From contig JBGGMM010000088.1 of the NCBI GenBank assembly GCA_041288045.1, positions 1 to 10,395 on the forward strand: 10,395 nt of DNA, written 5' to 3'. The notes under the pieces are model-generated. The model was not told the origin of the DNA and made no database searches. It worked only from the letters and a program-made list of their open reading frames with translations. Each line of letters opens with the position of its first letter. The first letter of the stretch is position 1. The position numbers and the translations under genes are program-made. The DNA is from Pseudobdellovibrionaceae bacterium. GTDB lineage: Bacteria; Bdellovibrionota; Bdellovibrionia; Bdellovibrionales; Bdellovibrionaceae. Of this stretch, positions 1 through 10,390 are shown one piece after another.

Positions 1-1596
1 ACTCGCATGGCCATCTCTCAAGACGGCTCTGTCGGGATCGGAACCAACAAACCAGTTTCATTTGTTCAAATCGCCTATCCAGGAATGATCTCAGCCATTA
101 ACAATGCGAATACTTATTTGCAAATCGGTGGTGATGAAAGCACGTCCAACGGTCACCGCTTGATCGGCTTTGGATACACCACTCCGTCCAACACTTATTC
201 TCCGGCCTATATGGGTTATCAGGAAAGTAGCAGTGCTGGGCAATCAAAAGGTGATTTGATTTTCGGAACTCGCAGCACAACCTCGGACGCGCAACCTGAA
301 GAACGAATGAGAATTATGAGTTCCGGAAATGTGGGAATCGGAACAAATGCTCCCGGCACAAGCTTGGATGTGAGTGGCGCGATCACTGTTCGCCCGACGG
401 GAACAGCCAGTGGCAATACAGGACAAATCCTTTTGCGAGAACTTTCTGTCAATGGCACAAACACTGTGACCCTCAGAGCACCTGATGCCTTAGCGGCCGA
501 TGTGAGCTTTGCTCTGCCAAGTGGTGACGGATCCAGTGGCCAAGTGCTGTCGACCAATGGATTGGGAGTTCTGACTTGGATCGATGCCGGCAGCAGCAAT
601 GGTTTTGTCGATGGTGGAAACTCTTTCGGTCAAGCTGGAGATCTTGGAACCAATGATAACAATCCACTTTATTTAAGAACCAACAGCAACACCAAGATGA
701 CGATTTTAGCTGCAGGCAACATTGGGATTGGGACGACCAATCCGACTTATAGCCTCAGCTTCAGTGGAGATTCCTCTCGCACCATCGGAATGGAAAGACA
801 TTCCACTGCCGGCACTGCAGGCAGCGATCTGATTCTAGCTGCCGGCGGAGCAACCAGCGGATCTTCCAACAAAGATGGTGGCGGGCTTCAGTTGAAAGCA
901 GGAACTGCCACCGGAAACGGCGGATCCAATATTTCTTTTTACGTGGCGCAAGGAAATCAAGGACCTGGTACCACTGATCGGCTGGCTGATATTTTTATGG
1001 GCGGCATTGATGGCACAACTCGAAGCGTGCGGTTAGGGATCGGATCATCTGCCGCCGGAAATTACAGTACAGCTTTGGGTTACAGCGCTTCGGCTCAAGG
1101 CAACTATAGCGTGGCTGTTGGTCCCAACTTTTATGTCAGTGGCACAAATAGCATGGGTTTCAATCTCGATACCACCAACCGAACTCTTTCTCAGGATAGC
1201 ACCATGGCCATCATGGGTGGGAATGTCGGAATCGGTACGACGATTCCAGGTTCAGGAACCAAATTGAATGTCGATGGTCAGATCCGCTCCAAGTCGGCAT
1301 CAATTGCCACGGGCTCAGTGGACTGGTCGGCTGGAAATACAGTCACCACTTCTTTTGATTGCGGAAGCCAAATCAGTATGGCCAACATTCGCGATGGAGG
1401 GAGCTACACTCTTGTGGTCACTGGCACGGGCACCACTCAATGTGATTTCAACACGGCCACCACTGGCGATGATGCGGGCACTGTGACCTATCGCTTCAGT
1501 CCTCCGAATTCGACCCGATCAGCTTCGACACACACGATTTATTCTCTCTTAAGAGTCGGCACCATTGTTTACATTTCATGGATTGGCGGATTTTAG
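1..1596 (+). CDS. Mosaic phage-tail-fibre-like trimeric adhesin (Bdellovibrio MAT/'tail fiber domain' type), 5'-truncated by the window edge
   Basis: The frame is open from base 1 (act cgc atg = T-R-M), and RMxI...GxVGIGT is an internal repeat context, so the ATG at 7 is probably not the true start. G(S/N)(V/I)GIGT motifs occur at 25, 325, 715 and 1219. Other fibre-type motifs are LPSGDGSSGQVLSTNGLGVLTW and FVDGGNSFG...LGTNDN. A 14-aa-period YadA-head-like segment lies at ~1024-1160. The protein is G/S/T/N-rich. Stop is TAG at 1594-1596. Confidence 0.85.
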   Translation, partial: TRMAISQDGSVGIGTNKPVSFVQIAYPGMISAINNANTYLQIGGDESTSNGHRLIGFGYTTPSNTYSPAYMGYQESSSAGQSKGDLIFGTRSTTSDAQPEERMRIMSSGNVGIGTNAPGTSLDVSGAITVRPTGTASGNTGQILLRELSVNGTNTVTLRAPDALAADVSFALPSGDGSSGQVLSTNGLGVLTWIDAGSSNGFVDGGNSFGQAGDLGTNDNNPLYLRTNSNTKMTILAAGNIGIGTTNPTYSLSFSGDSSRTIGMERHSTAGTAGSDLILAAGGATSGSSNKDGGGLQLKAGTATGNGGSNISFYVAQGNQGPGTTDRLADIFMGGIDGTTRSVRLGIGSSAAGNYSTALGYSASAQGNYSVAVGPNFYVSGTNSMGFNLDTTNRTLSQDSTMAIMGGNVGIGTTIPGSGTKLNVDGQIRSKSASIATGSVDWSAGNTVTTSFDCGSQISMANIRDGGSYTLVVTGTGTTQCDFNTATTGDDAGTVTYRFSPPNSTRSASTHTIYSLLRVGTIVYISWIGGF

Positions 1597-1600
1597 ATGT

Positions 1601-4600
1601 ATGATGAAAATTCAAACCGCGCTGCTTAGATTAGCACTCATCTTGTCCGGTTTGACTCCGGTTTTGGTTTTCTTTTACGCCACTCCCGATTCATCGGCCT
1701 ATCAGGCCCGCATCATGTTCTGGAAATCCCAGTGCCCGATCACTTACGGTGCCCACATCAGCGTCAACGGGCAAGTGAATGCTGTGCTTGTCGATGGCAC
1801 CACGACTTATATCGGTGGCAACTTCACCACCATTCAAGGGCAAGCCAGAAACAATCTCGCCGCCATTGACAACAATGGCAACCTGCTCGCTTTCAATCCC
1901 AATATGAACGGAGCCGTCAACGTTTTGAAAAAAGATGGCGGCACTCTTTACGTCGGCGGAGATTTCACCAATCTGCATGACTATCTCACCACTCAAGGTG
2001 TGGAGGTCAGCTCAGCCGGCGCTGTGAACACCAGCTTTCCCTCAGTCTCAGGCGGAACCATCAAAGCGGTGGTTCCTGATGGCAGCGGCGGTTGGTTCAT
2101 TGGTGGATCCTTTACCAGTGTCGGCGGCACTGGTCGGACTCGTTTGGCCCGCATCAATTCCGACGGCAGCTTGCACGCCTTCAGTGCCACTGCCAATGGC
2201 ACAGTCGAAGCTTTGGCTCTTTCAGGAACCACTTTGTATGTGGGAGGAGCCTTCACCGATCTTTCTGGAGGTGGGCGCATCAGCATCGGTGCTGTGAACG
2301 CGAATACTGGTGTGGTCACTGCCTGGAATCCAATCACCAATGTGGGCGGAACTGTGCGAACCATGGCCCTCAGCGGGACCACACTTTATATCGGTGGGGA
2401 TTTTATCAGTGTTGGGGGAGCCAGCCGACTTCGATTGGCGGCTCTTGACACCACTGTGAACACCAACAATGCTCTGGCCTGGAATCCCACTGTCAATGCA
2501 GGCGTGTACTCAATCAAGGTATCTGCCGACGGCAACACTCTTTATGCCGGTGGAAATTTCACGAATGTCGGTGATTATCAAGCTTCTCAGGGAACAGAGA
2601 TCAACACTTCCGGAGTTGCCAATGCCAGTTTTCCGCTGGTGACCGGTGGTGCCGTCAGCACGGCTGTCAGTGATGGCAGCGGCGGTTGGTACATTGGTGG
2701 ATCCTTCACCACTGTGGGTGGCCAAGCTCGAAACCGAATTGCTCGTATCAATTCTGACGGAAGTGTTCACAGCTTCAACCCAGGAGCTGATAGCGGGATC
2801 TCAGGCATGATTCTGATTGGCAGCACTCTGTATGTGAGTGGCTCTTTCTCGACAATCGGTGGTGCCACTCGCAATCGAATGGCGGCTTTGGACACGACCT
2901 TGGATACCAACAACGCCACAGCTTGGAATCCAAATTTCAATGGGACCATCAACGCTCTCGTCGCCAACGGCACAACAATCTATGCCGGTGGAGCTTTCAC
3001 ACAAATCGGCGACACGCAAAGCACCTCGGGCGGAGAGCTGGATCTGACTACGGGAAAAATGACCACCACTTTCCCAGCCATCACCGGCGGCGATGTGTTG
3101 GCCAGCGCTCCCGACGGCAGCGGCGGTTGGTACATCGCCGGAACATTCACAAGCGTCGGTGGAACTGCTCGCAATCGCATTGCCCGCATCAATTCTGACG
3201 GAACTCTGCATGCTTTCAATCCCGATGCAGATGGCGCCGTCAATGCTCTCGTTCTCAGTGGCAGCACTCTGTATGTCGGTGGAGCTTTCACCAATATCGG
3301 CGGCTCGACGCGAAACCGAATCGCAGCCTTAAACACCGCGCTGGACACGGGTAATGCCACTCTTTGGAATCCCAATGCCGACAACACAGTGAATGCACTT
3401 TTGCTCTCAGGCACAACCATGTACGTGGGTGGAGGCTTTGCCAATATCGGTGGTGCCGCTCGCACACGCATTGCCGCCTTGGACACAGCCACCAACACCA
3501 ACAATGCCACTCTTTGGAATCCCACTGCAGATAACACCGTTCGAAGTTTTGCGATCAATGGAACCACTCTCTATGTGGGTGGAAGCTTCGCCAACATTGG
3601 AGGCTCAGCGCGAAATCAGATTGCTGCTCTTCTCACCACAACCAACACCAATAATGCCACTGCTTGGAATCCGAACTCCAATGCGACTGTCAATGCAGTC
3701 CTTCTTTCAGGGACCACTTTGTATGTGGCCGGAGGCTTTTCCAGTATTGGAGGTTCTTCGCGAAATGCGATTGCCGCTCTGAACACAGCCGTGAACACCA
3801 ACAATGCCACGGCTTGGAATCCCGCTGCCAATTCCTTTTCTTCAGCCGCATCTTTAGCTCTTTCGGGAACCACTCTGTATGTTGGTGGAAATTTCTCTTA
3901 TGCCGGTGGACAAACGCGGTCGCGAATTGTCGCTCTGAACACAGCTGTGAACACCAACAATGCTCTCTCTTGGGAAGGCGCTGGCACTGGGACCGCTGGA
4001 ACTGTGAATACGATTTCACTGACTGCGACCAAAATGTATATCGGTGGAACCATCACTGTCTTAGGCGGAAGAAACAGATCCAGACTGGCTGCTCTTGATA
4101 CGACGGCTGCAACCGATATGGTCACCAATTTCAGTCCGGGATTGGACAATGATGTCAAAGCTGTGGCTTTCGCTAGCAACATTCTCTATGCCGGAGGCGA
4201 CTTCAGCGCGACGGCTTCTGTGAATCGAAATCGAATGGCGGCCTTTGACATGACGACGAGCACGGGCGCGCCCACCTCTTGGAATCCTGGCATCAGCGGG
4301 AATTACCCTTTCTTCTATTGGGTCAGCGCCATGGCGGTCTATGGTGGCAATGTCTATGTGGCCGGAAATTTTCGAATCTTAGGAGGGCAAGCGCGAGCTT
4401 CATTGGGTGCAGTGAGCGCCTCCACTGGCCTTGCAACAGCGTGGAATCCTGTGATTGGCTTTGACGATGCTTCTGGTGGATCGACTGTGCAGTATGCCTC
4501 AGAACTTTCGATCATGGGGGATACTTTGTACGTCGGAGGATTTTTCAATTCATTCACCAATGTTCCCAGAGAAAATTTGGCCGCTTTTGATCTTCTCACT

Positions 4601-5995
4601 GGCAGCGACACTCCCACGGATTGGCATCCAGCCACCAATGCGGCTGTCTCCTGGATCAGCAATGACGGAACCGACCTCTATGTCGGCGGCAGTTTCACTC
4701 AGATCGGTGGAACTCCCCGCTCCAGATTGGCTTCGATTAGCACCCTAACAGATACCAACAATGTCACCACTTGGGATCCAAGCGCCGATGCCACTGTCTT
4801 GAGTATTGAGGTCTCGGGAACAACTGTGTATGCCGCTGGAAATTTCAAAATGATTGGTGGTGCGGTCCGATCGAAAATCGCTGCCATTAGCACAAGCACA
4901 AACACGAATAATGCCACTGCCTGGAATCCCAACTCTTCAGGTCAGGTCAACAGCCTTTCGCTCAATGGCACCACCCTTTATGTCGGCGGCAGTTTTTCAC
5001 ACATCGGGGGACAGCCGCGGCTGAATGCTGCAGCCCTCGACACTACGACTAACACCAACATGGCCTCCAGTTGGAATCCCGGGGCGAACAACACAGTGGA
5101 TGCAATCTCCGCTTCGGGAACTGCAATCTACGTCGGTGGGCAATTCACAAATATCGGCGGAACTCCCCGGGGACGACTTGCCGCTCTGGACACTGGCTTT
5201 AACACCAACAATTCGACCTCTTGGAATCCAAGCGCCGATGGCTCGGTCAAAACGCTTTTGCAATCCGGAAATTATTTTTACGTCGGCGGAAATTTCTCAA
5301 GCCTTGGTGGCCAGTTCAGAAATGATTTGGGAATGGTGGACACCACGGTCGCTGTCAACAATGCCACAAATTTCAATCCTTCAACGGTTGGCGGAGCCCA
5401 GGTCCTTCCCAATGTCTCTTACATCAATACACTGGCTCTTTCAGGAACCACTTTGTATGTCGGGGGAAATTTTGATTTTATCGGCAATGCTTCTCGCTGG
5501 AGCCTTGCCGCTCTCAACACTTTGCTAGATACGAACAATGCCACATCTTTGAATTCGGCTTTGAATTCTTTTGCGACTGTCAACAGCATCGCTCTGAGCG
5601 GAACGACTTTGTACGTCGCTGGAAATTTCAATTCTCTTGGCGGCCAAACCCGCAATCGCATTGGTGCCATCGATACGACAGTCGCCAGCAACAATGCCAC
5701 CACTTGGAATCCGAACGCAAACGCCACAGTCTCCACGATCTTACTTGAAGGCACGAATCTCTATGTGGGCGGCTCTTTCACCAACATCGGAGGAGCCAGT
5801 CGCAATTATCTCGCCATGCTCTACACAGGCCGAGCGACGAATATGGCGGCACCATGGAATCCCAATGCAAGTGCAGCGGTTTCAGCTCTAGCATCGAATG
5901 GTGCTGGCACCTATACGGTGGGCGGAAACTTCACAACACTGGGTGGATCGGCGAGCCGAATCCGTGCAGCGACTTTGAGTGGCTGCGGGAATTAA
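1601..5995 (+). CDS. Large secreted multi-beta-propeller repeat protein (1464 aa, 28 blade repeats), putative adhesin
   Basis: ATG-ATG at 1601/1604 lies 4 nt after the upstream stop, with GGCGGA at 1585-1590 as a possible RBS; the TTG start at 1565 in the ORF track overlaps the upstream gene and is less likely. The N-terminus is Sec-like (MMKIQTALLRLALILSGLTPVLVFFYA...). It has 28 copies of a ~50-aa unit, VxAL.LSGTTLYVGGxFTxIGGxxRNRIAALD...WNP. Stop is TAA at 5993-5995. Confidence 0.9.
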   Translation: MMKIQTALLRLALILSGLTPVLVFFYATPDSSAYQARIMFWKSQCPITYGAHISVNGQVNAVLVDGTTTYIGGNFTTIQGQARNNLAAIDNNGNLLAFNPNMNGAVNVLKKDGGTLYVGGDFTNLHDYLTTQGVEVSSAGAVNTSFPSVSGGTIKAVVPDGSGGWFIGGSFTSVGGTGRTRLARINSDGSLHAFSATANGTVEALALSGTTLYVGGAFTDLSGGGRISIGAVNANTGVVTAWNPITNVGGTVRTMALSGTTLYIGGDFISVGGASRLRLAALDTTVNTNNALAWNPTVNAGVYSIKVSADGNTLYAGGNFTNVGDYQASQGTEINTSGVANASFPLVTGGAVSTAVSDGSGGWYIGGSFTTVGGQARNRIARINSDGSVHSFNPGADSGISGMILIGSTLYVSGSFSTIGGATRNRMAALDTTLDTNNATAWNPNFNGTINALVANGTTIYAGGAFTQIGDTQSTSGGELDLTTGKMTTTFPAITGGDVLASAPDGSGGWYIAGTFTSVGGTARNRIARINSDGTLHAFNPDADGAVNALVLSGSTLYVGGAFTNIGGSTRNRIAALNTALDTGNATLWNPNADNTVNALLLSGTTMYVGGGFANIGGAARTRIAALDTATNTNNATLWNPTADNTVRSFAINGTTLYVGGSFANIGGSARNQIAALLTTTNTNNATAWNPNSNATVNAVLLSGTTLYVAGGFSSIGGSSRNAIAALNTAVNTNNATAWNPAANSFSSAASLALSGTTLYVGGNFSYAGGQTRSRIVALNTAVNTNNALSWEGAGTGTAGTVNTISLTATKMYIGGTITVLGGRNRSRLAALDTTAATDMVTNFSPGLDNDVKAVAFASNILYAGGDFSATASVNRNRMAAFDMTTSTGAPTSWNPGISGNYPFFYWVSAMAVYGGNVYVAGNFRILGGQARASLGAVSASTGLATAWNPVIGFDDASGGSTVQYASELSIMGDTLYVGGFFNSFTNVPRENLAAFDLLTGSDTPTDWHPATNAAVSWISNDGTDLYVGGSFTQIGGTPRSRLASISTLTDTNNVTTWDPSADATVLSIEVSGTTVYAAGNFKMIGGAVRSKIAAISTSTNTNNATAWNPNSSGQVNSLSLNGTTLYVGGSFSHIGGQPRLNAAALDTTTNTNMASSWNPGANNTVDAISASGTAIYVGGQFTNIGGTPRGRLAALDTGFNTNNSTSWNPSADGSVKTLLQSGNYFYVGGNFSSLGGQFRNDLGMVDTTVAVNNATNFNPSTVGGAQVLPNVSYINTLALSGTTLYVGGNFDFIGNASRWSLAALNTLLDTNNATSLNSALNSFATVNSIALSGTTLYVAGNFNSLGGQTRNRIGAIDTTVASNNATTWNPNANATVSTILLEGTNLYVGGSFTNIGGASRNYLAMLYTGRATNMAAPWNPNASAAVSALASNGAGTYTVGGNFTTLGGSASRIRAATLSGCGN
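1769..5980 (+). repeat. Intragenic tandem array of 28 degenerate ~150-bp blade-coding repeats
   Basis: I counted 28 (Y/F/T)x(G/A/S)GxF-type cores in the translation. DNA-level similarity is visible, e.g. 2077-2117 vs 2671-2711 (41 nt, 2 mismatches) and recurring ACCAACAATGCCAC...TGGAATCC. Confidence 0.85.
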
Positions 5996-7530
5996 TTGCA
6001 GACACCTTGCTCTTCAGCACAAGTATAGGGCGAGCAACCATAACTAGTAGCACTGACGCAAGCATCTCTCGCACCGGCGTCTCGACAGGTAGGTTGATCC
6101 GGATAATCTGAATACGGCACGAACATACTTGTGTAACCGAGACAGGTCATTCGCCAGCAAGTGCAAGTGCTCGTTGGGCAGACCGCATGCGGGCGATCCA
6201 TTGAATCTGTCCAAATGATAAGATTCGGACTGGCTGAAAGCAGCGTGGTTCCCATGAGAAAAACTCGGGTGGCTCCAGGAGACATATTGACTGTTGAAAT
6301 GACTCCGCTTGAGCTTCTAGCTTGAATTGTACATGCCCCTGCAGTCGTACTTGCAGAACAAGAAGCCGAGGTCGATCCACTTGTACATGACCATGCCCAA
6401 GGTCCGGTGCCTGCCACAGCACTGGCCGTTCCGACGGCACAAAGTCCTGTCGTTGGAGCCGCCGCTCTTGAAGTTCCATCAGCAGCTCCACAGGTTGCGG
6501 TGGGTGGAGTGACTGAGCTGGCAGCACTGCAATTCGCATTCGTTGTGCTGCCGAAAACTCCACGGCAAATCCAAGTCCAAGGACCTGTTGCTCCGCCAAC
6601 AATTGCTGACGATGATCCAGCTGAACAGCGATTGGCGAGAGGTGGTGGAGCTGCGAGAGTTTGTCCATTCGCTGGTCCACACACTCCGGCAACTGGAGTT
6701 CCGACACAGGTTCCAGCTGGCCTTGGAGCTTCATCGAGAGCAACGACTTCACTTGCTCGACCTTGAGTGAATCCTAATCTCGTCAGTGGCGAAGGCCGAG
6801 GCACACAAACAACTTCCAAACCACTGCTTCCCCAGCGAAGATCTGTCATATACTCATCAGCTTCACATCCCAAAGTGGTCGGCAAGTTTGCACAGGTCAG
6901 TTTCAATGTGAGTGGATCCACACTCACCACATATTGTCCCGGGCCCGCAGAGAGACCACCTAGTCCCGAACAATTGTTACCGGCAGGAAGAGGTTGGCAA
7001 TTGGGAGTGTTGTCGGGATTCATCCCGGCAAAAACAGGCTGATCTGGGTTCAATGTAAAGCAATCGGTGGCTGTCACCTGAAGTGTATCATTGGGAACGA
7101 GAATGTCGATGTTGATGGGTTCAAAGGGGAAATCAATTCCATCATAAATCAAAGTTCCCATAATATGATTTGTCGAGCCAATCTGTACCAAACTGAGATT
7201 GCCTGGCATTCCCACTTTCACTCCACATAATTGAGGGGGCGTTAGCTCGCACTCGGCTCCAGGAATCAGAATTTCGATATCGTCTTTGAGATTGTTTCTG
7301 AGGCAGATCGCAACTCCCCCAGGACAGCCAGTGGTGCGAAAGGTAGTGGGCTGCATAGACAAAAGCCTGAGTTTGGCTTGGGCGGCGATAAACGAGGAGC
7401 GAATGCGAGGGGCCTTGAGTAGCACATCCGTTTGTTGGCTTTTTTGCATGAGGTATCCTGAAATCAATCCAACTCCAAGAGTCAAAACGATCGCAGTTAA
7501 AAGCGCCTGGCCTTTAGAATTTATCGACAT
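5992..7530 (-). CDS. Large Cys-rich minor pilin/pseudopilin-like protein (PilX/GspK-like, no Glu5), 512 aa
   Basis: ATG at 7530 has GAGGA about 10 nt upstream. The N-terminus MSINSKG|QALLTAIVLTLGVGLISGYLM has a short leader, a Gly at the putative cleavage site and a hydrophobic helix, as in class III signal peptides. It is followed by three Cys-bracketed modules, two CG.A.G...GPW.W.C repeats and a 10-Cys C-terminal domain. The stop overlaps the stop of the convergent gene. Confidence 0.75.
   Translation of the reverse strand: MSINSKGQALLTAIVLTLGVGLISGYLMQKSQQTDVLLKAPRIRSSFIAAQAKLRLLSMQPTTFRTTGCPGGVAICLRNNLKDDIEILIPGAECELTPPQLCGVKVGMPGNLSLVQIGSTNHIMGTLIYDGIDFPFEPINIDILVPNDTLQVTATDCFTLNPDQPVFAGMNPDNTPNCQPLPAGNNCSGLGGLSAGPGQYVVSVDPLTLKLTCANLPTTLGCEADEYMTDLRWGSSGLEVVCVPRPSPLTRLGFTQGRASEVVALDEAPRPAGTCVGTPVAGVCGPANGQTLAAPPPLANRCSAGSSSAIVGGATGPWTWICRGVFGSTTNANCSAASSVTPPTATCGAADGTSRAAAPTTGLCAVGTASAVAGTGPWAWSCTSGSTSASCSASTTAGACTIQARSSSGVISTVNMSPGATRVFLMGTTLLSASPNLIIWTDSMDRPHAVCPTSTCTCWRMTCLGYTSMFVPYSDYPDQPTCRDAGARDACVSATSYGCSPYTCAEEQGVCN
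6352..6687 (-). repeat. Two tandem 4-Cys ~50-aa modules (CGxAxG...P...C..G...GPWxWxC...CSA)
   Basis: GVCGPANGQTLAAPPPLANRCSAGSSSAIVGGATGPWTWICRGVFGSTTNANCSA (~6523-6687) and ATCGAADGTSRAAAPTTGLCAVGTASAVAGTGPWAWSCTSGSTSASCSA (~6352-6498). Confidence 0.85.
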
Positions 7531-7688
7531 AGGATGAACGTCCTCAACATCAAATTCCATCCTCCCATTTCTCAGCACAGTTTACCAAGATTTCTCAAAA
7601 TGATCCGATCTAAGTCGAGACAGTCCAAAGCCTATTCTGAGAAATTCATCGGCATTTTCGGCGATCTTGATTTAAACTAGTGGATAGC
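7531..7688. promoter_or_regulatory. Divergent promoter region between pilin-like genes, with three ATTTCTCA copies
   Basis: This is an AT-richer 158-bp gap between divergent starts. ATTTCTCAG lies at 7567-7575, ATTTCTCAA at 7590-7598, and the inverted copy CTGAGAAAT at 7637-7645. No confident -35/-10 elements could be assigned. Confidence 0.55.
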
Positions 7689-8462
7689 ATGCAAATCTCA
7701 CTTTCAAATTCTCTTTTGAAATCCTCTGCAGGCATGTCTCTGATGTCAGTCATTATAGGCATGGCAATGATGGGCCTTTTGGCGCTGGCTTCTGCCAATA
7801 TTCTTGCTGATACAAAAAGAGCAGAAATGACTGGAGAAGTCTCTTCGTTTCTTTCCCAGTCTCACACTTTAAGTATTTACAAAACTCGGTCGCTTCAAAG
7901 AATTAGAGCGATTCTAATGGCATCAGCCAATGCGAATTGCCCTGCTGCGCGAATGAGTGCCTGCCTGGCTGGAACAGGGACAAGTTGCCTTTTGTGCGCC
8001 AATCCCGATTTCGTTGCGATGCCTGCTCTGTCTTCGACATTCACTGAAAATCGAATTGTTGTTCGCAGCCTCGCCAGCTATCAAAGAGTGTGTACATCCG
8101 ACTCATCCTGTGGAACTGTTCGGGTCCGCGTCGCTTCGACCTCCGCTGCAGATACCAGTCGCGGCATCGATGCCATGAGAAGAGATGTTGAATTCCATAT
8201 TGCCGGAGCCTTCTTAGGCGACAAATCCGATTTTTCATTTGCTTGCACTTCTGGCGGAAAGGTTGTCACTGGCATCGATCAGGCCTCTCGCCAAGCCAAA
8301 TGCGAAGGGATGCGCCTCATAGGCCCCAGCAATTGCACAAGCGCCCCAGTCAATGATCTGAATGCCGGATTACCTACTGGCTGCGCGACCATGGCAAGCA
8401 TTGATTGCCCACGAGGAATTCGCCGAATTGGTTTGATGTCTGGACAGGGAGTCTGCTTGTGA
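7689..8462 (+). CDS. Cys-rich minor pilin/pseudopilin-like protein (257 aa)
   Basis: Start is ATG at 7689 (alternative GTG at 7680). The N-terminus ...LLKSSAG|MSLMSVIIGMAMMGLLALASANIL is a class III-like signal with Ser rather than Glu at +5. The C-terminal third consists of three Cys-bracketed modules. Stop is TGA at 8460-8462. Confidence 0.75.
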   Translation: MQISLSNSLLKSSAGMSLMSVIIGMAMMGLLALASANILADTKRAEMTGEVSSFLSQSHTLSIYKTRSLQRIRAILMASANANCPAARMSACLAGTGTSCLLCANPDFVAMPALSSTFTENRIVVRSLASYQRVCTSDSSCGTVRVRVASTSAADTSRGIDAMRRDVEFHIAGAFLGDKSDFSFACTSGGKVVTGIDQASRQAKCEGMRLIGPSNCTSAPVNDLNAGLPTGCATMASIDCPRGIRRIGLMSGQGVCL

Positions 8463-9793
8463 GGAAGTCCGGCGGATTTAGCTTAATTGAGATCCTAGCT
8501 GCGACAGCCCTGATCTCAGTTTCAGCTCTGGGACTAGGAATGGGCTTACAGAAAATGGCCAAATCCCGACAAAACGTCAAAACTGTCACAGCTGGAATGG
8601 CCATTGAATCGGCGATTCAAGCAGCCATACAAGATCCAGTTCAGTATGATTCAGAAGCCATCTATGATATGCGTAATGGACTCAACAACGTCCGCACCAT
8701 GAGCTTTGATTTGACTGTGGCGTTGGCGGATTCCGCGGATGTGAGCACCGTGACCATCCCGACAAACTCAAATGTCTATTTTAATTCCAATGGGTCTGTC
8801 TGCTCGTCTTGCCTTGAGAATACGACAGACTGGGCTTTTAAAGCGCAAATTGAAATCGAACGGCAGAATGTCCCAGGAGCCCCTGGAATTTTAACTTATG
8901 GCCTTGCTTACCGCTTTCAATACAATCCCAATCTTTATATTTTCAAAAACATGGGTGTTGCCGATAACGCCGGCTCTGGATCCCCTTCTGGTTCCGGCTC
9001 TGGTTCTGGCCCCAGTGCTTTTACCAATTCCGACTTTAAATGGATCATCCCTCGCGAAATTTATATGAATCCAGCTGGTCAATCCTGCGCACTTGGTTCA
9101 CAGAATGTCGTAGTCACAGGCATTGATACAAATACTGGACAGGTCAACTGTCTGAAAGTGGGAGACGCAGACCCAGCCACTCGTTGTGCCCCAGGGCAAG
9201 TGGCAACGGGCTGGACTTATGAGACTTCCCCGAGCGGAGCCAAACTTCCTAAGCTGAAAATGGCTTGTAAAAATATTGCTCCTGCTGGCAATTGCCCCAG
9301 CCTGGCTCCTGGATATGATTACGCTGTCCAATCTATCGTCCCCGATTCTTTTGATCCCAATGCCACTTCACCTCGCCAAGGGCGCTGCATTTTTATTGCC
9401 GACCGAACACAAGCTGTGGCCATGCATTCTGGAACCTCGAAGAGGTCCGTGCGCTTTGATATCTGCCCTGATTTTTACACTTTTGTTCCAGCCCCAGCAA
9501 GAGCCGCCACCAATGGCTGCTGGTTTTCCTCTGTGACTCCTCTTCAGGGTTGGCGCGCTCAAGCTTGCCCGGCTGGATACACGGGCCAAGATTGGGTTCA
9601 AGATGTGGATCCCGCTTTACCTTTGGCAGTCACAGGCGTTGTCAGTGGCAGCAGTGTCACTTGCACATTACAAAACGACCAGCAGACCTTACCGCCTGGG
9701 CCCACCAATTACTCAGGCTATCAAGCTCTGGTACGAGTCGCTGGCACTTGTGTCTTGAACCCAGATGAATCCGTGGCCATGCCCCCCAACTGA
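8459..9793 (+). CDS. Prepilin-type N-terminal cleavage/methylation domain protein, large Cys-rich minor pilin (444 aa)
   Basis: GTG at 8459 overlaps the upstream TGA (GTGA), with an AGGGAG RBS at 8446-8451. It has a canonical class III motif, MRKSGG|FSLIEILAATALISVSALGLG, with Glu5. A GS-rich linker is followed by three Cys-bracketed modules and a further Cys-containing C-terminal domain. Confidence 0.88.
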   Translation: MRKSGGFSLIEILAATALISVSALGLGMGLQKMAKSRQNVKTVTAGMAIESAIQAAIQDPVQYDSEAIYDMRNGLNNVRTMSFDLTVALADSADVSTVTIPTNSNVYFNSNGSVCSSCLENTTDWAFKAQIEIERQNVPGAPGILTYGLAYRFQYNPNLYIFKNMGVADNAGSGSPSGSGSGSGPSAFTNSDFKWIIPREIYMNPAGQSCALGSQNVVVTGIDTNTGQVNCLKVGDADPATRCAPGQVATGWTYETSPSGAKLPKLKMACKNIAPAGNCPSLAPGYDYAVQSIVPDSFDPNATSPRQGRCIFIADRTQAVAMHSGTSKRSVRFDICPDFYTFVPAPARAATNGCWFSSVTPLQGWRAQACPAGYTGQDWVQDVDPALPLAVTGVVSGSSVTCTLQNDQQTLPPGPTNYSGYQALVRVAGTCVLNPDESVAMPPN

Positions 9794-10320: not shown

Positions 10321-10390
10321 GGTGCCTTTCTCTTTTTCCTTCACCCGCTGCGGCTTGCCGCGCTGGGTGAAGGAAAAAGAGAAAGGCACC
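10321..10390. repeat. 70-bp near-perfect palindrome (26-bp perfect arms), REP/REPIN-like or RNA-stabilising hairpin
   Basis: GGTGCCTTTCTCTTTTTCCTTCACCC (10321-10346) is the exact reverse complement of GGGTGAAGGAAAAAGAGAAAGGCACC (10365-10390). The 18-nt centre contains a further GCGGC/GCCGC stem. It starts 11 nt after the last stop codon. Confidence 0.9.

Follow-up and report, generated by a model that had tools for sequence, protein, structure and literature searches.

A 28-blade DUF5122/Rax2-like protein encoded behind a fibre gene in a Pseudobdellovibrionaceae bacterium probably folds as nested seven-bladed propellers

In DDB1 the BPB propeller is attached through two linkers, and double propellers of the Aip1/WDR1 type close across their termini. 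One account describes, in the part consulted, DDB1 as a set of three propellers of seven blades each, among which BPB is mobile (PMC10665379). DUF5122 is named in a table of contact-based models, and nesting is absent from the passage seen there (PMC8078820). On the side of fibres, the main-text parts of a study of Bdellovibrio MAT proteins describe a Bd2133 tip trimer which holds one hexapeptide in a pocket (PMC10769870), and gp38 of phages T2 and T6 is presented, in the sections consulted, as a monomeric variable adhesin whose N-terminus is attached to the trimeric gp37 fibre (PMC12032242). Here we analyse 10,395 nucleotides of DNA from a Pseudobdellovibrionaceae bacterium (contig JBGGMM010000088.1; this whole stretch is called the window), in which a gene at 1601-5995 encodes a 28-blade propeller protein directly behind a fibre gene. 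We propose that the protein consists of four seven-bladed propellers nested by insertion, that a disulfide between Cys45 and Cys1462 closes it, and that it forms a dockable adhesive fibre tip; we consider this explanation, taken as a whole, fairly likely. The gene and its start are laid out as follows.

1601..5995, + strand: 28-blade DUF5122/Rax2-like beta-propeller protein, an open reading frame (ORF) of 1464 aa (ORF call; Pfam PF17164).
1601..1699, + strand: probable signal peptide (hydrophobic N-terminal stretch, called by eye; the orthologue G121 is laid out alike).

The protein belongs to PF17164 (DUF5122), scoring 156.3 bits with the Pfam hidden Markov model against a curated cut-off of 27. 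PF12768, the C-terminal propeller of Rax2, has no match in the query at E<=0.1 and is present in the homologues P0065 and P0046, and NCBIfam gives zero matches for the propeller protein. Relatives at E<=1e-20 number 4045 among 8000 scored sequences, frequently with type IX secretion system (T9SS), Ig-like or TIG domains, and the ESM Atlas matches are DUF5122/Rax2 clusters only. No solved relative was found in the PDB by sequence search with the query (best E 0.25) or by search with profile A1, for which the top match is a designed propeller, and no second copy was found in the bacterium's own genome. The protein encoded at 1601-5992 also matches PHROG 5490 (function unassigned there; E 1.6e-216), which places the repeat family in phage or prophage genomes too. 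A reading of this DNA made from its letters without database searches (the sequence-only reading) had claimed 28 blade cores, and we count the same number: 28 cores of the GxxF type run from residue 69 to residue 1438 with a spacing of 47-59 aa, and no linker follows core 7, 14 or 21.

The repeat pattern is interrupted after cores 2, 6 and 9 (NLHDY at nt 1970, NVGDY at nt 2564 and QIGDT at nt 3002). Among the 28 cores these three are the only ones from which the GGxxR hairpin motif is missing, each is followed directly by an entry core of the form DGSGG-W(F/Y)I, and in a self-comparison cores 2, 6 and 9 are mutual best matches, as are the entry cores 3, 7 and 10. Motif and self-comparison together confirm the three atypical junctions, each with a common entry unit, that had been noticed in the sequence-only reading. 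Orthologue G121 lies on a single 3.6-Mb contig and likewise has 28 cores and three junctions, so the pattern is not an assembly artefact.

We propose that the junctions are exits. In an ordinary blade the GGxxR hairpin would join strands b and c; in a junction core this hairpin would open, the chain would depart, and a new propeller would begin with the c-d pair of the entry unit. Seven cores on, that propeller would close and the c-d strands of a return core would complete the blade that had been left open, so that each link would be a reciprocal swap of strands across a linker of two strands. Repetition of this step would produce a bracket-like grammar, here with exits at 2, 6 and 9 and returns at 16, 20 and 23, and the N-terminal d strand would complete the last blade. 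That the propellers are nested in some closing order seems to us distinctly probable; the exact map, with these three returns, is rated somewhat lower, as a reasonably likely one.

1730..1975, + strand: propeller 1, N-terminal part (strand d, blade 1, core 2 a-b), then exit 1 (2b-23c pairing in the predicted complex).
1982..2566, + strand: predicted propeller 2, N-terminal part, made of the entry c-d pair, cores 3-5 and a-b of core 6 and followed by exit 2 (count rule and return signature of the family; not seen in model 1).
2576..3004, + strand: predicted propeller 3, N-terminal part, made of the entry c-d pair, cores 7-8 and a-b of core 9 and followed by exit 3 (model 1 crossover at junction 9).
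3014..4060, + strand: predicted innermost propeller 4, contiguous (entry c-d, cores 10-15, core 16 a-b; WD40 matches, core 16 atypical).
4061..4702, + strand: predicted propeller 3, C-terminal part (from 16 c-d up to 20 a-b, with core 20 or core 19 as the boundary; return signature and couplings).
4703..5152, + strand: predicted propeller 2, C-terminal part (20 c-d to 23 a-b; from the count rule).
5153..5992, + strand: propeller 1, C-terminal part (23 c-d, cores 24-27, core 28 a-c; predicted complex, 0.93 vs 0.00).

Much of the evidence comes from the family. The best 120 of 4045 matches and the best 120 of 4529 from a second search gave 211 distinct proteins, which were parsed together with 11 ORFs from related genomes and the query; these homologues are related to one another and the p-values of all family tests are overstated. 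There are 232 tracts with at least 10 cores, 197 of which carry a junction, and in 145 of the 197 the number of cores equals 7×(junctions+1), with 115 tracts of 14 cores, 15 of 21, 13 of 28 and 2 of 35. This count rule holds in 81/115 tracts from the first search set and 64/82 from the second, and a shuffle control reaches a mean of 88.3 and a maximum of 104 in 10,000 trials; where at least two junctions are present it holds in 30 of 54 tracts (4.1 by shuffle). Core number thus follows junction number across homologues, where the sequence-only reading had proposed to look for gain or loss of seven-blade blocks, and the pattern is not due to chance. The first junction falls after core 1 or 2 and the gaps between junctions are mostly 2-4 cores, a spacing that is impossible for serial seven-bladed domains. 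All 145 tracts fit a push-down grammar, side-by-side insertions (P0027, P0164) included. Among individual members, P0027, P0164, P0054 and P0162 have junction patterns such as (1,7,11,26) and (1,10) that imply two propellers side by side in one host, P0002 carries four junctions in a tract of 35 cores, and the ORF at L091:1989-4364, with junctions after cores 1, 3 and 6, ends after 14 cores in an unrelated tail and is probably broken.

The return cores carry a signature of their own. A return profile trained on one-junction proteins was tested on 30 multi-junction tracts, in which the 77 predicted returns have a mean Z of 0.98 (0/3000 permutations; about zero at shifted positions) and a predicted return ranks first of all cores in 22 tracts, where 4.0 would be expected. 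The signature scores 0.55 in 58 held-out one-junction tracts, seven tracts from 20 further ORFs of family genomes give a mean Z of 0.83 (0/5000 permutations), and an untrained measure of atypicality concurs. Within the query, core 16 had been called atypical and is so (z 1.5-2.0), likewise in orthologue G121. The motif IGGTPR had been offered as modest support for returns at 20 and 23. It does occur in these two cores only, but as a return signature it was rejected: Pro at that position is not enriched at the return cores of the family, which makes the argument a weak one.

Strand couplings favour a model in which junction cores and return cores exchange their c strands. Couplings of strands a-b with strand c were learnt from 1739 ordinary blades and cross-validated by protein. 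The a-b strands of an ordinary blade favour their own c (123/149), those of return cores show no such preference (109/203, mean -0.06), and junction cores favour the c of the predicted return core in 123/203 cases. Swapped pairing outscores unswapped pairing in 129/203 (57/88 in multi-junction tracts). Across 114 one-junction proteins, core 1 covaries best with the c strand of core 8, and core 8 with that of the junction, while the diagonal is noisy in other rows.

Two structure models and one predicted complex address the fold directly. Model 1 was made with AlphaFold for residues 127-1189 from 41 rows (predicted local distance difference test score, pLDDT, 86; predicted template modelling score, pTM, 0.62). 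Its matches to WD40 domains (Z 26-28, root mean square deviation (rmsd) 2.2-2.8 Å over about 270 residues) agree with the seven-bladed propellers that had been claimed from the repeats. The inner propeller is contiguous, with a WD40 match of Z about 28 over model residues 355-744, and an outer, discontinuous propeller aligns with 1gxr over 303-1057 (276 residues, rmsd 2.8 Å) and with 7vgg over 312-1058 (268 residues, rmsd 2.3 Å), an alignment which in its whole extent rests on 1/50 rows in the first listing and 2/50 in the second. This outer match spans the inner propeller, so that in model 1 the chain crosses over at junction 9 only, and strands 9a-b sit in one propeller with cores 18-23. Foldseek matches to model 1 as a whole chain are poor (template modelling score about 0.2). 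Residues 42-128 and 1186-1464, submitted to ESMFold2 as separate pieces, are predicted to form a complex scoring 0.93 (best control 0.00), above a mark that 51/78 solved pairs and 2/108 mismatched pairs reach; the runs agree in at least 96% of contacts and the partner has a pLDDT of 91. Strand 2b (116-119) pairs with 23c (1193-1196), and the exit and return strands touch. This complex supports the earlier claim that both termini lie in propeller 1. A split propeller, in which distant segments meet at a b-c break, therefore appears in the predictions at 2b-23c and at junction 9 and in the covariation. Both links of a middle propeller would leave b-c hairpins on one face, and we infer that the propellers are more likely arranged as a zigzag chain than as a coaxial stack.

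The same arrangement of termini gives a role to the only two cysteines.

1733..1735, + strand: Cys45, 24 residues before core 1, at a c-d loop position (sequence; predicted interface).
5984..5986, + strand: Cys1462, 24 residues on from where core 28 starts, at a c-d loop position (sequence; predicted interface).

Residues 45 (nt 1733) and 1462 (nt 5984) are indeed the sole Cys of the protein, and both lie inside the interface of the predicted complex. Positions -24 and +24 of a 50-residue repeat correspond to the c-d loop, so a disulfide here would replace that loop. A Cys pair at -24/-25 and +24 occurs in the query, G121 (28 cores, where the pair is the only Cys after the signal), L021 (14 cores) and L084 (6 cores), that is in 4/256 tracts with about 0.5 expected, and a further pair was seen by eye in P0065 (21 cores); the first junction of every member with the terminal pair follows core 2. 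Retention of the pair while propeller number changes would be expected if both ends belong to propeller 1. The position of the residues, their co-occurrence in relatives and their place in the interface fit the N-to-C disulfide suggested by the sequence-only reading, and closure of the chain by Cys45-Cys1462 is in our estimate likely. L084 (G091:C39) is a 340-aa ORF that has six cores and keeps the terminal Cys pair; it may stem from an internal deletion or a collapsed assembly, or else be a propeller of six blades with a self-closing junction. Members with the first junction after core 1 often have another pair, placed around core 1 at -15 to -17 and about +12 (L013, L014, L016-L019, L075-L077, L079; P0029, P0046, P0049, P0060, P0067); such a pair would pin the exit strand to blade 1.

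A number of observations weigh against nesting or against details of the map. Fifty-two of the 197 junction-bearing tracts do not obey the count rule, and the return-signature tests were run without them; 35 of them fall short, those inspected (not all) having missed or truncated cores, and ten have a junction after core 7, of which the two that were read, P0019 and P0038, begin with an entry unit and look serial. L084 has one junction yet only 6 cores. Positions that would be returns under nesting alone score just 0.1 for the pattern (1,4) and -2.18 for (1,10). The query taken by itself is weak (mean Z 0.7, with 322/3000 permutations as good), its core 20 has a z of about 0 against 1.7-1.9 for core 19, and its couplings place the nested pairing last (-3.45 vs -2.67 and -2.40). 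The last-in-first-out order wins in just 11/19 tracts by couplings and in 3 or 5 of 7 by signature. Placing the return points by the rule of seven blades, as the sequence-only reading did, therefore stands at family level through the held-out signature, but not for core 20 of the query, where core 19 scores higher and the couplings are unfavourable. In model 1 ordinary hairpins form at junction 6 and at core 20, and core 16 is looped out; the alignment behind this model is mis-registered and skips core 16 (covered in 1/40 rows). Model 2, an AlphaFold model of the full 21-core relative L014 from a 7-row in-register alignment (pLDDT 76.6, pTM 0.43), is serial, with WD40 matches over about 20-365 and 367-699 and a DSSP hairpin at junction 4; its pLDDT falls below 50 at junction 1 as well as where the model itself crosses from one propeller to the next (43-49, 362-367, 388-396, 686-708). 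It counts against nesting, though with little covariation to draw on. In the predicted complex the cuts were chosen by the analyst, and propeller halves can pass through likeness to solved structures. Structure prediction is thus divided, with a crossover at junction 9 in model 1 and a serial fold in model 2. The claim that the protein is nested and not serial draws its support from the junctions as exits, the family count rule and the returns, whereas neither model shows more than one level of nesting.

The alternative that survives best is a ring of serial propellers, in which cores 3-9, 10-16 and 17-23 would each be contiguous, only propeller 1 would be split (1-2 + 24-28) and junction 6 would be a relic hairpin. 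In the query 2, 9, 16 and 23 do lie seven apart, and the hairpins of model 1 at junction 6 and core 20, the missing return signature of core 20 and L084, which suggests that a junction can sit within one small propeller, all speak for it; the predicted complex of 42-128 with 1186-1464 fits it equally well, and the disulfide does not tell the two apart. Yet such a ring cannot be drawn for most homologues (junctions after 1,3,5; 1,4,7; 1,5,9; 1,3,6), positions that would be returns in the ring alone score -0.29 (n=42) against 0.89 (n=46) for those that would be returns under nesting alone, the seven cores added with each junction go unexplained, and model 1 puts 9a-b together with cores 18-23. 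We regard the ring as unlikely. Closure in the order 4, 2, 3, 1, with returns at 16, 19 and 23 and all propellers split or inserted, appears quite unlikely: core 19 outscores core 20 in the query and the couplings prefer this order (-2.67 vs -3.45), but it would need three-way swaps without longer linkers (all spacings being 47-59 aa), the one- and two-junction proteins would permit only reciprocal swaps if propeller 1 closes last, and in G121 (2,5,9) and L075 (1,3,6) the atypical core is the one that nesting predicts (19 and 17, respectively). Four contiguous propellers (1-7, 8-14, 15-21, 22-28), in which the junctions would be decorated loops and the two Cys would have nothing to do with each other, are very unlikely. 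Model 2 speaks for this arrangement, as do 28-core members that are serial and have linkers at intervals of seven cores (P0043, P0075). Against it, model 2 comes from 7 rows at low pTM and is uncertain at its own crossings, linkers are missing from the query at 7, 14 and 21, and neither the count rule nor the return signature, the couplings, the N-C complementation or the Cys pair would be explained. Nesting by insertion is, on the sequence comparisons, well supported for the DUF5122/Rax2-like family.

The surroundings of the gene suggest what the nested propellers may be for.

1..1596, + strand: MAT-like / phage-tail-fibre-like protein, 5' end beyond the contig edge (PHROG tail-fibre matches; profile match to Bd2133).
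1219-1593, + strand: 125-aa fibre tip domain (found in 74/121 family genomes).
1700..1726, + strand: short aromatic peptide (..IMFWK) at the likely mature N-terminus, a candidate docking peptide (motif enrichment behind the tip domain).

The stop codon of the fibre gene lies 4 nt ahead of the propeller gene, and profile searches relate the upstream gene to MAT proteins (8ond (Bd2133), E 5.8e-6; 8ol4, E 0.0014; 8oml, E 0.00068). The 130-aa domain conserved behind the signal peptide of MAT fibres would fall in the part of this gene that lies past the contig edge. Of 30 loci with the tip, 27 have a following ORF and 21 of these a hydrophobic N-terminus; a short peptide of FW/GF type, a motif defined after these loci had been seen, is found in 15/21 of the signal-bearing genes behind the tip and in 36/552 control ORFs. 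The bodies behind the aromatic peptide vary, and propeller proteins follow tips in the window, G121, L013 and L091. The bacterium's own genome holds another pair of tip and partner, on C89. It is possible that a tip domain and a signal-bearing gene with an aromatic peptide form a cassette of fibre plus swappable head across the family. The gene order and the enrichment of the motif, with the analogy of phage fibres, suggest that the propeller protein is likely a dockable adhesin of the upstream fibre. Its aromatic peptide would bind to the trimeric tip of the MAT-like fibre, and four propeller faces would be displayed for prey or surface binding. More tentatively, a recursive exit/entry module may let a widespread family of bacterial surface proteins grow by nesting propellers, as many as five deep, or by placing them side by side; in Bdellovibrio-like predators the disulfide-closed products may be exchangeable adhesin heads that clip onto MAT tips by the aromatic peptide, a prey-recognition cassette in two parts.

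Beyond the propeller gene the window encodes three Cys-rich proteins with pilin-like N-termini, at 5992-7578 (-), 7680-8462 (+) and 8459-9793 (+), the last with the N-methylation motif PF07963 (Pfam); they are possibly minor pilins beside the fibre locus. At the contig end a perfect 26-bp inverted repeat, read by eye (10321-10346 / 10365-10390), is a terminator or repeat element.

The split propellers known so far are single cases, and recursive propeller nesting in the DUF5122/Rax2-like family was not found in the literature searched (mostly without subscription papers; AlphaFold DB not covered). A recursive nesting module, if true, would add a new rule by which repeat proteins grow, one that can be read from the sequence like matched brackets; it would account for mis-assigned domain boundaries, in annotation and in shallow-alignment models, in thousands of DUF5122/Rax2-like proteins, and it would offer designers a double-linked way of chaining propellers. 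The pattern of fibre and partner bears on how Bdellovibrio-like predators diversify prey recognition.

DDB1 and the Aip1/WDR1-type proteins are fixed architectures, whereas here a reusable exit/entry module appears recursively or side by side (14, 21, 28 and 35 cores). The split WD40 domain of AMBRA1 resembles the proposed link in that a seven-bladed propeller is broken at b-c of one blade and its N- and C-terminal halves reunite; as described in the part of the source consulted, it differs in having a single level, with a disordered region instead of a propeller as the insert, and in belonging to an unrelated sequence family (PMC10665379). The upstream gene shares VGIGT-type repeats and the Bd2133 profile match with the Bdellovibrio MAT fibres, a match that is mostly stalk, so that a common tip fold does not follow; the MAT tips lie within the fibre chain, and a downstream partner protein goes unmentioned in the main-text parts of that source (PMC10769870). 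For gp38 of T2 and T6 the sections consulted describe a folded attachment domain and a polyglycine sandwich (PMC12032242), where our protein would have a short peptide and a body of propeller repeats throughout, with no polyglycine sandwich receptor domain and no homology shown; what the two systems would have in common is the logic of a fibre with an adhesin attached by its N-terminus.

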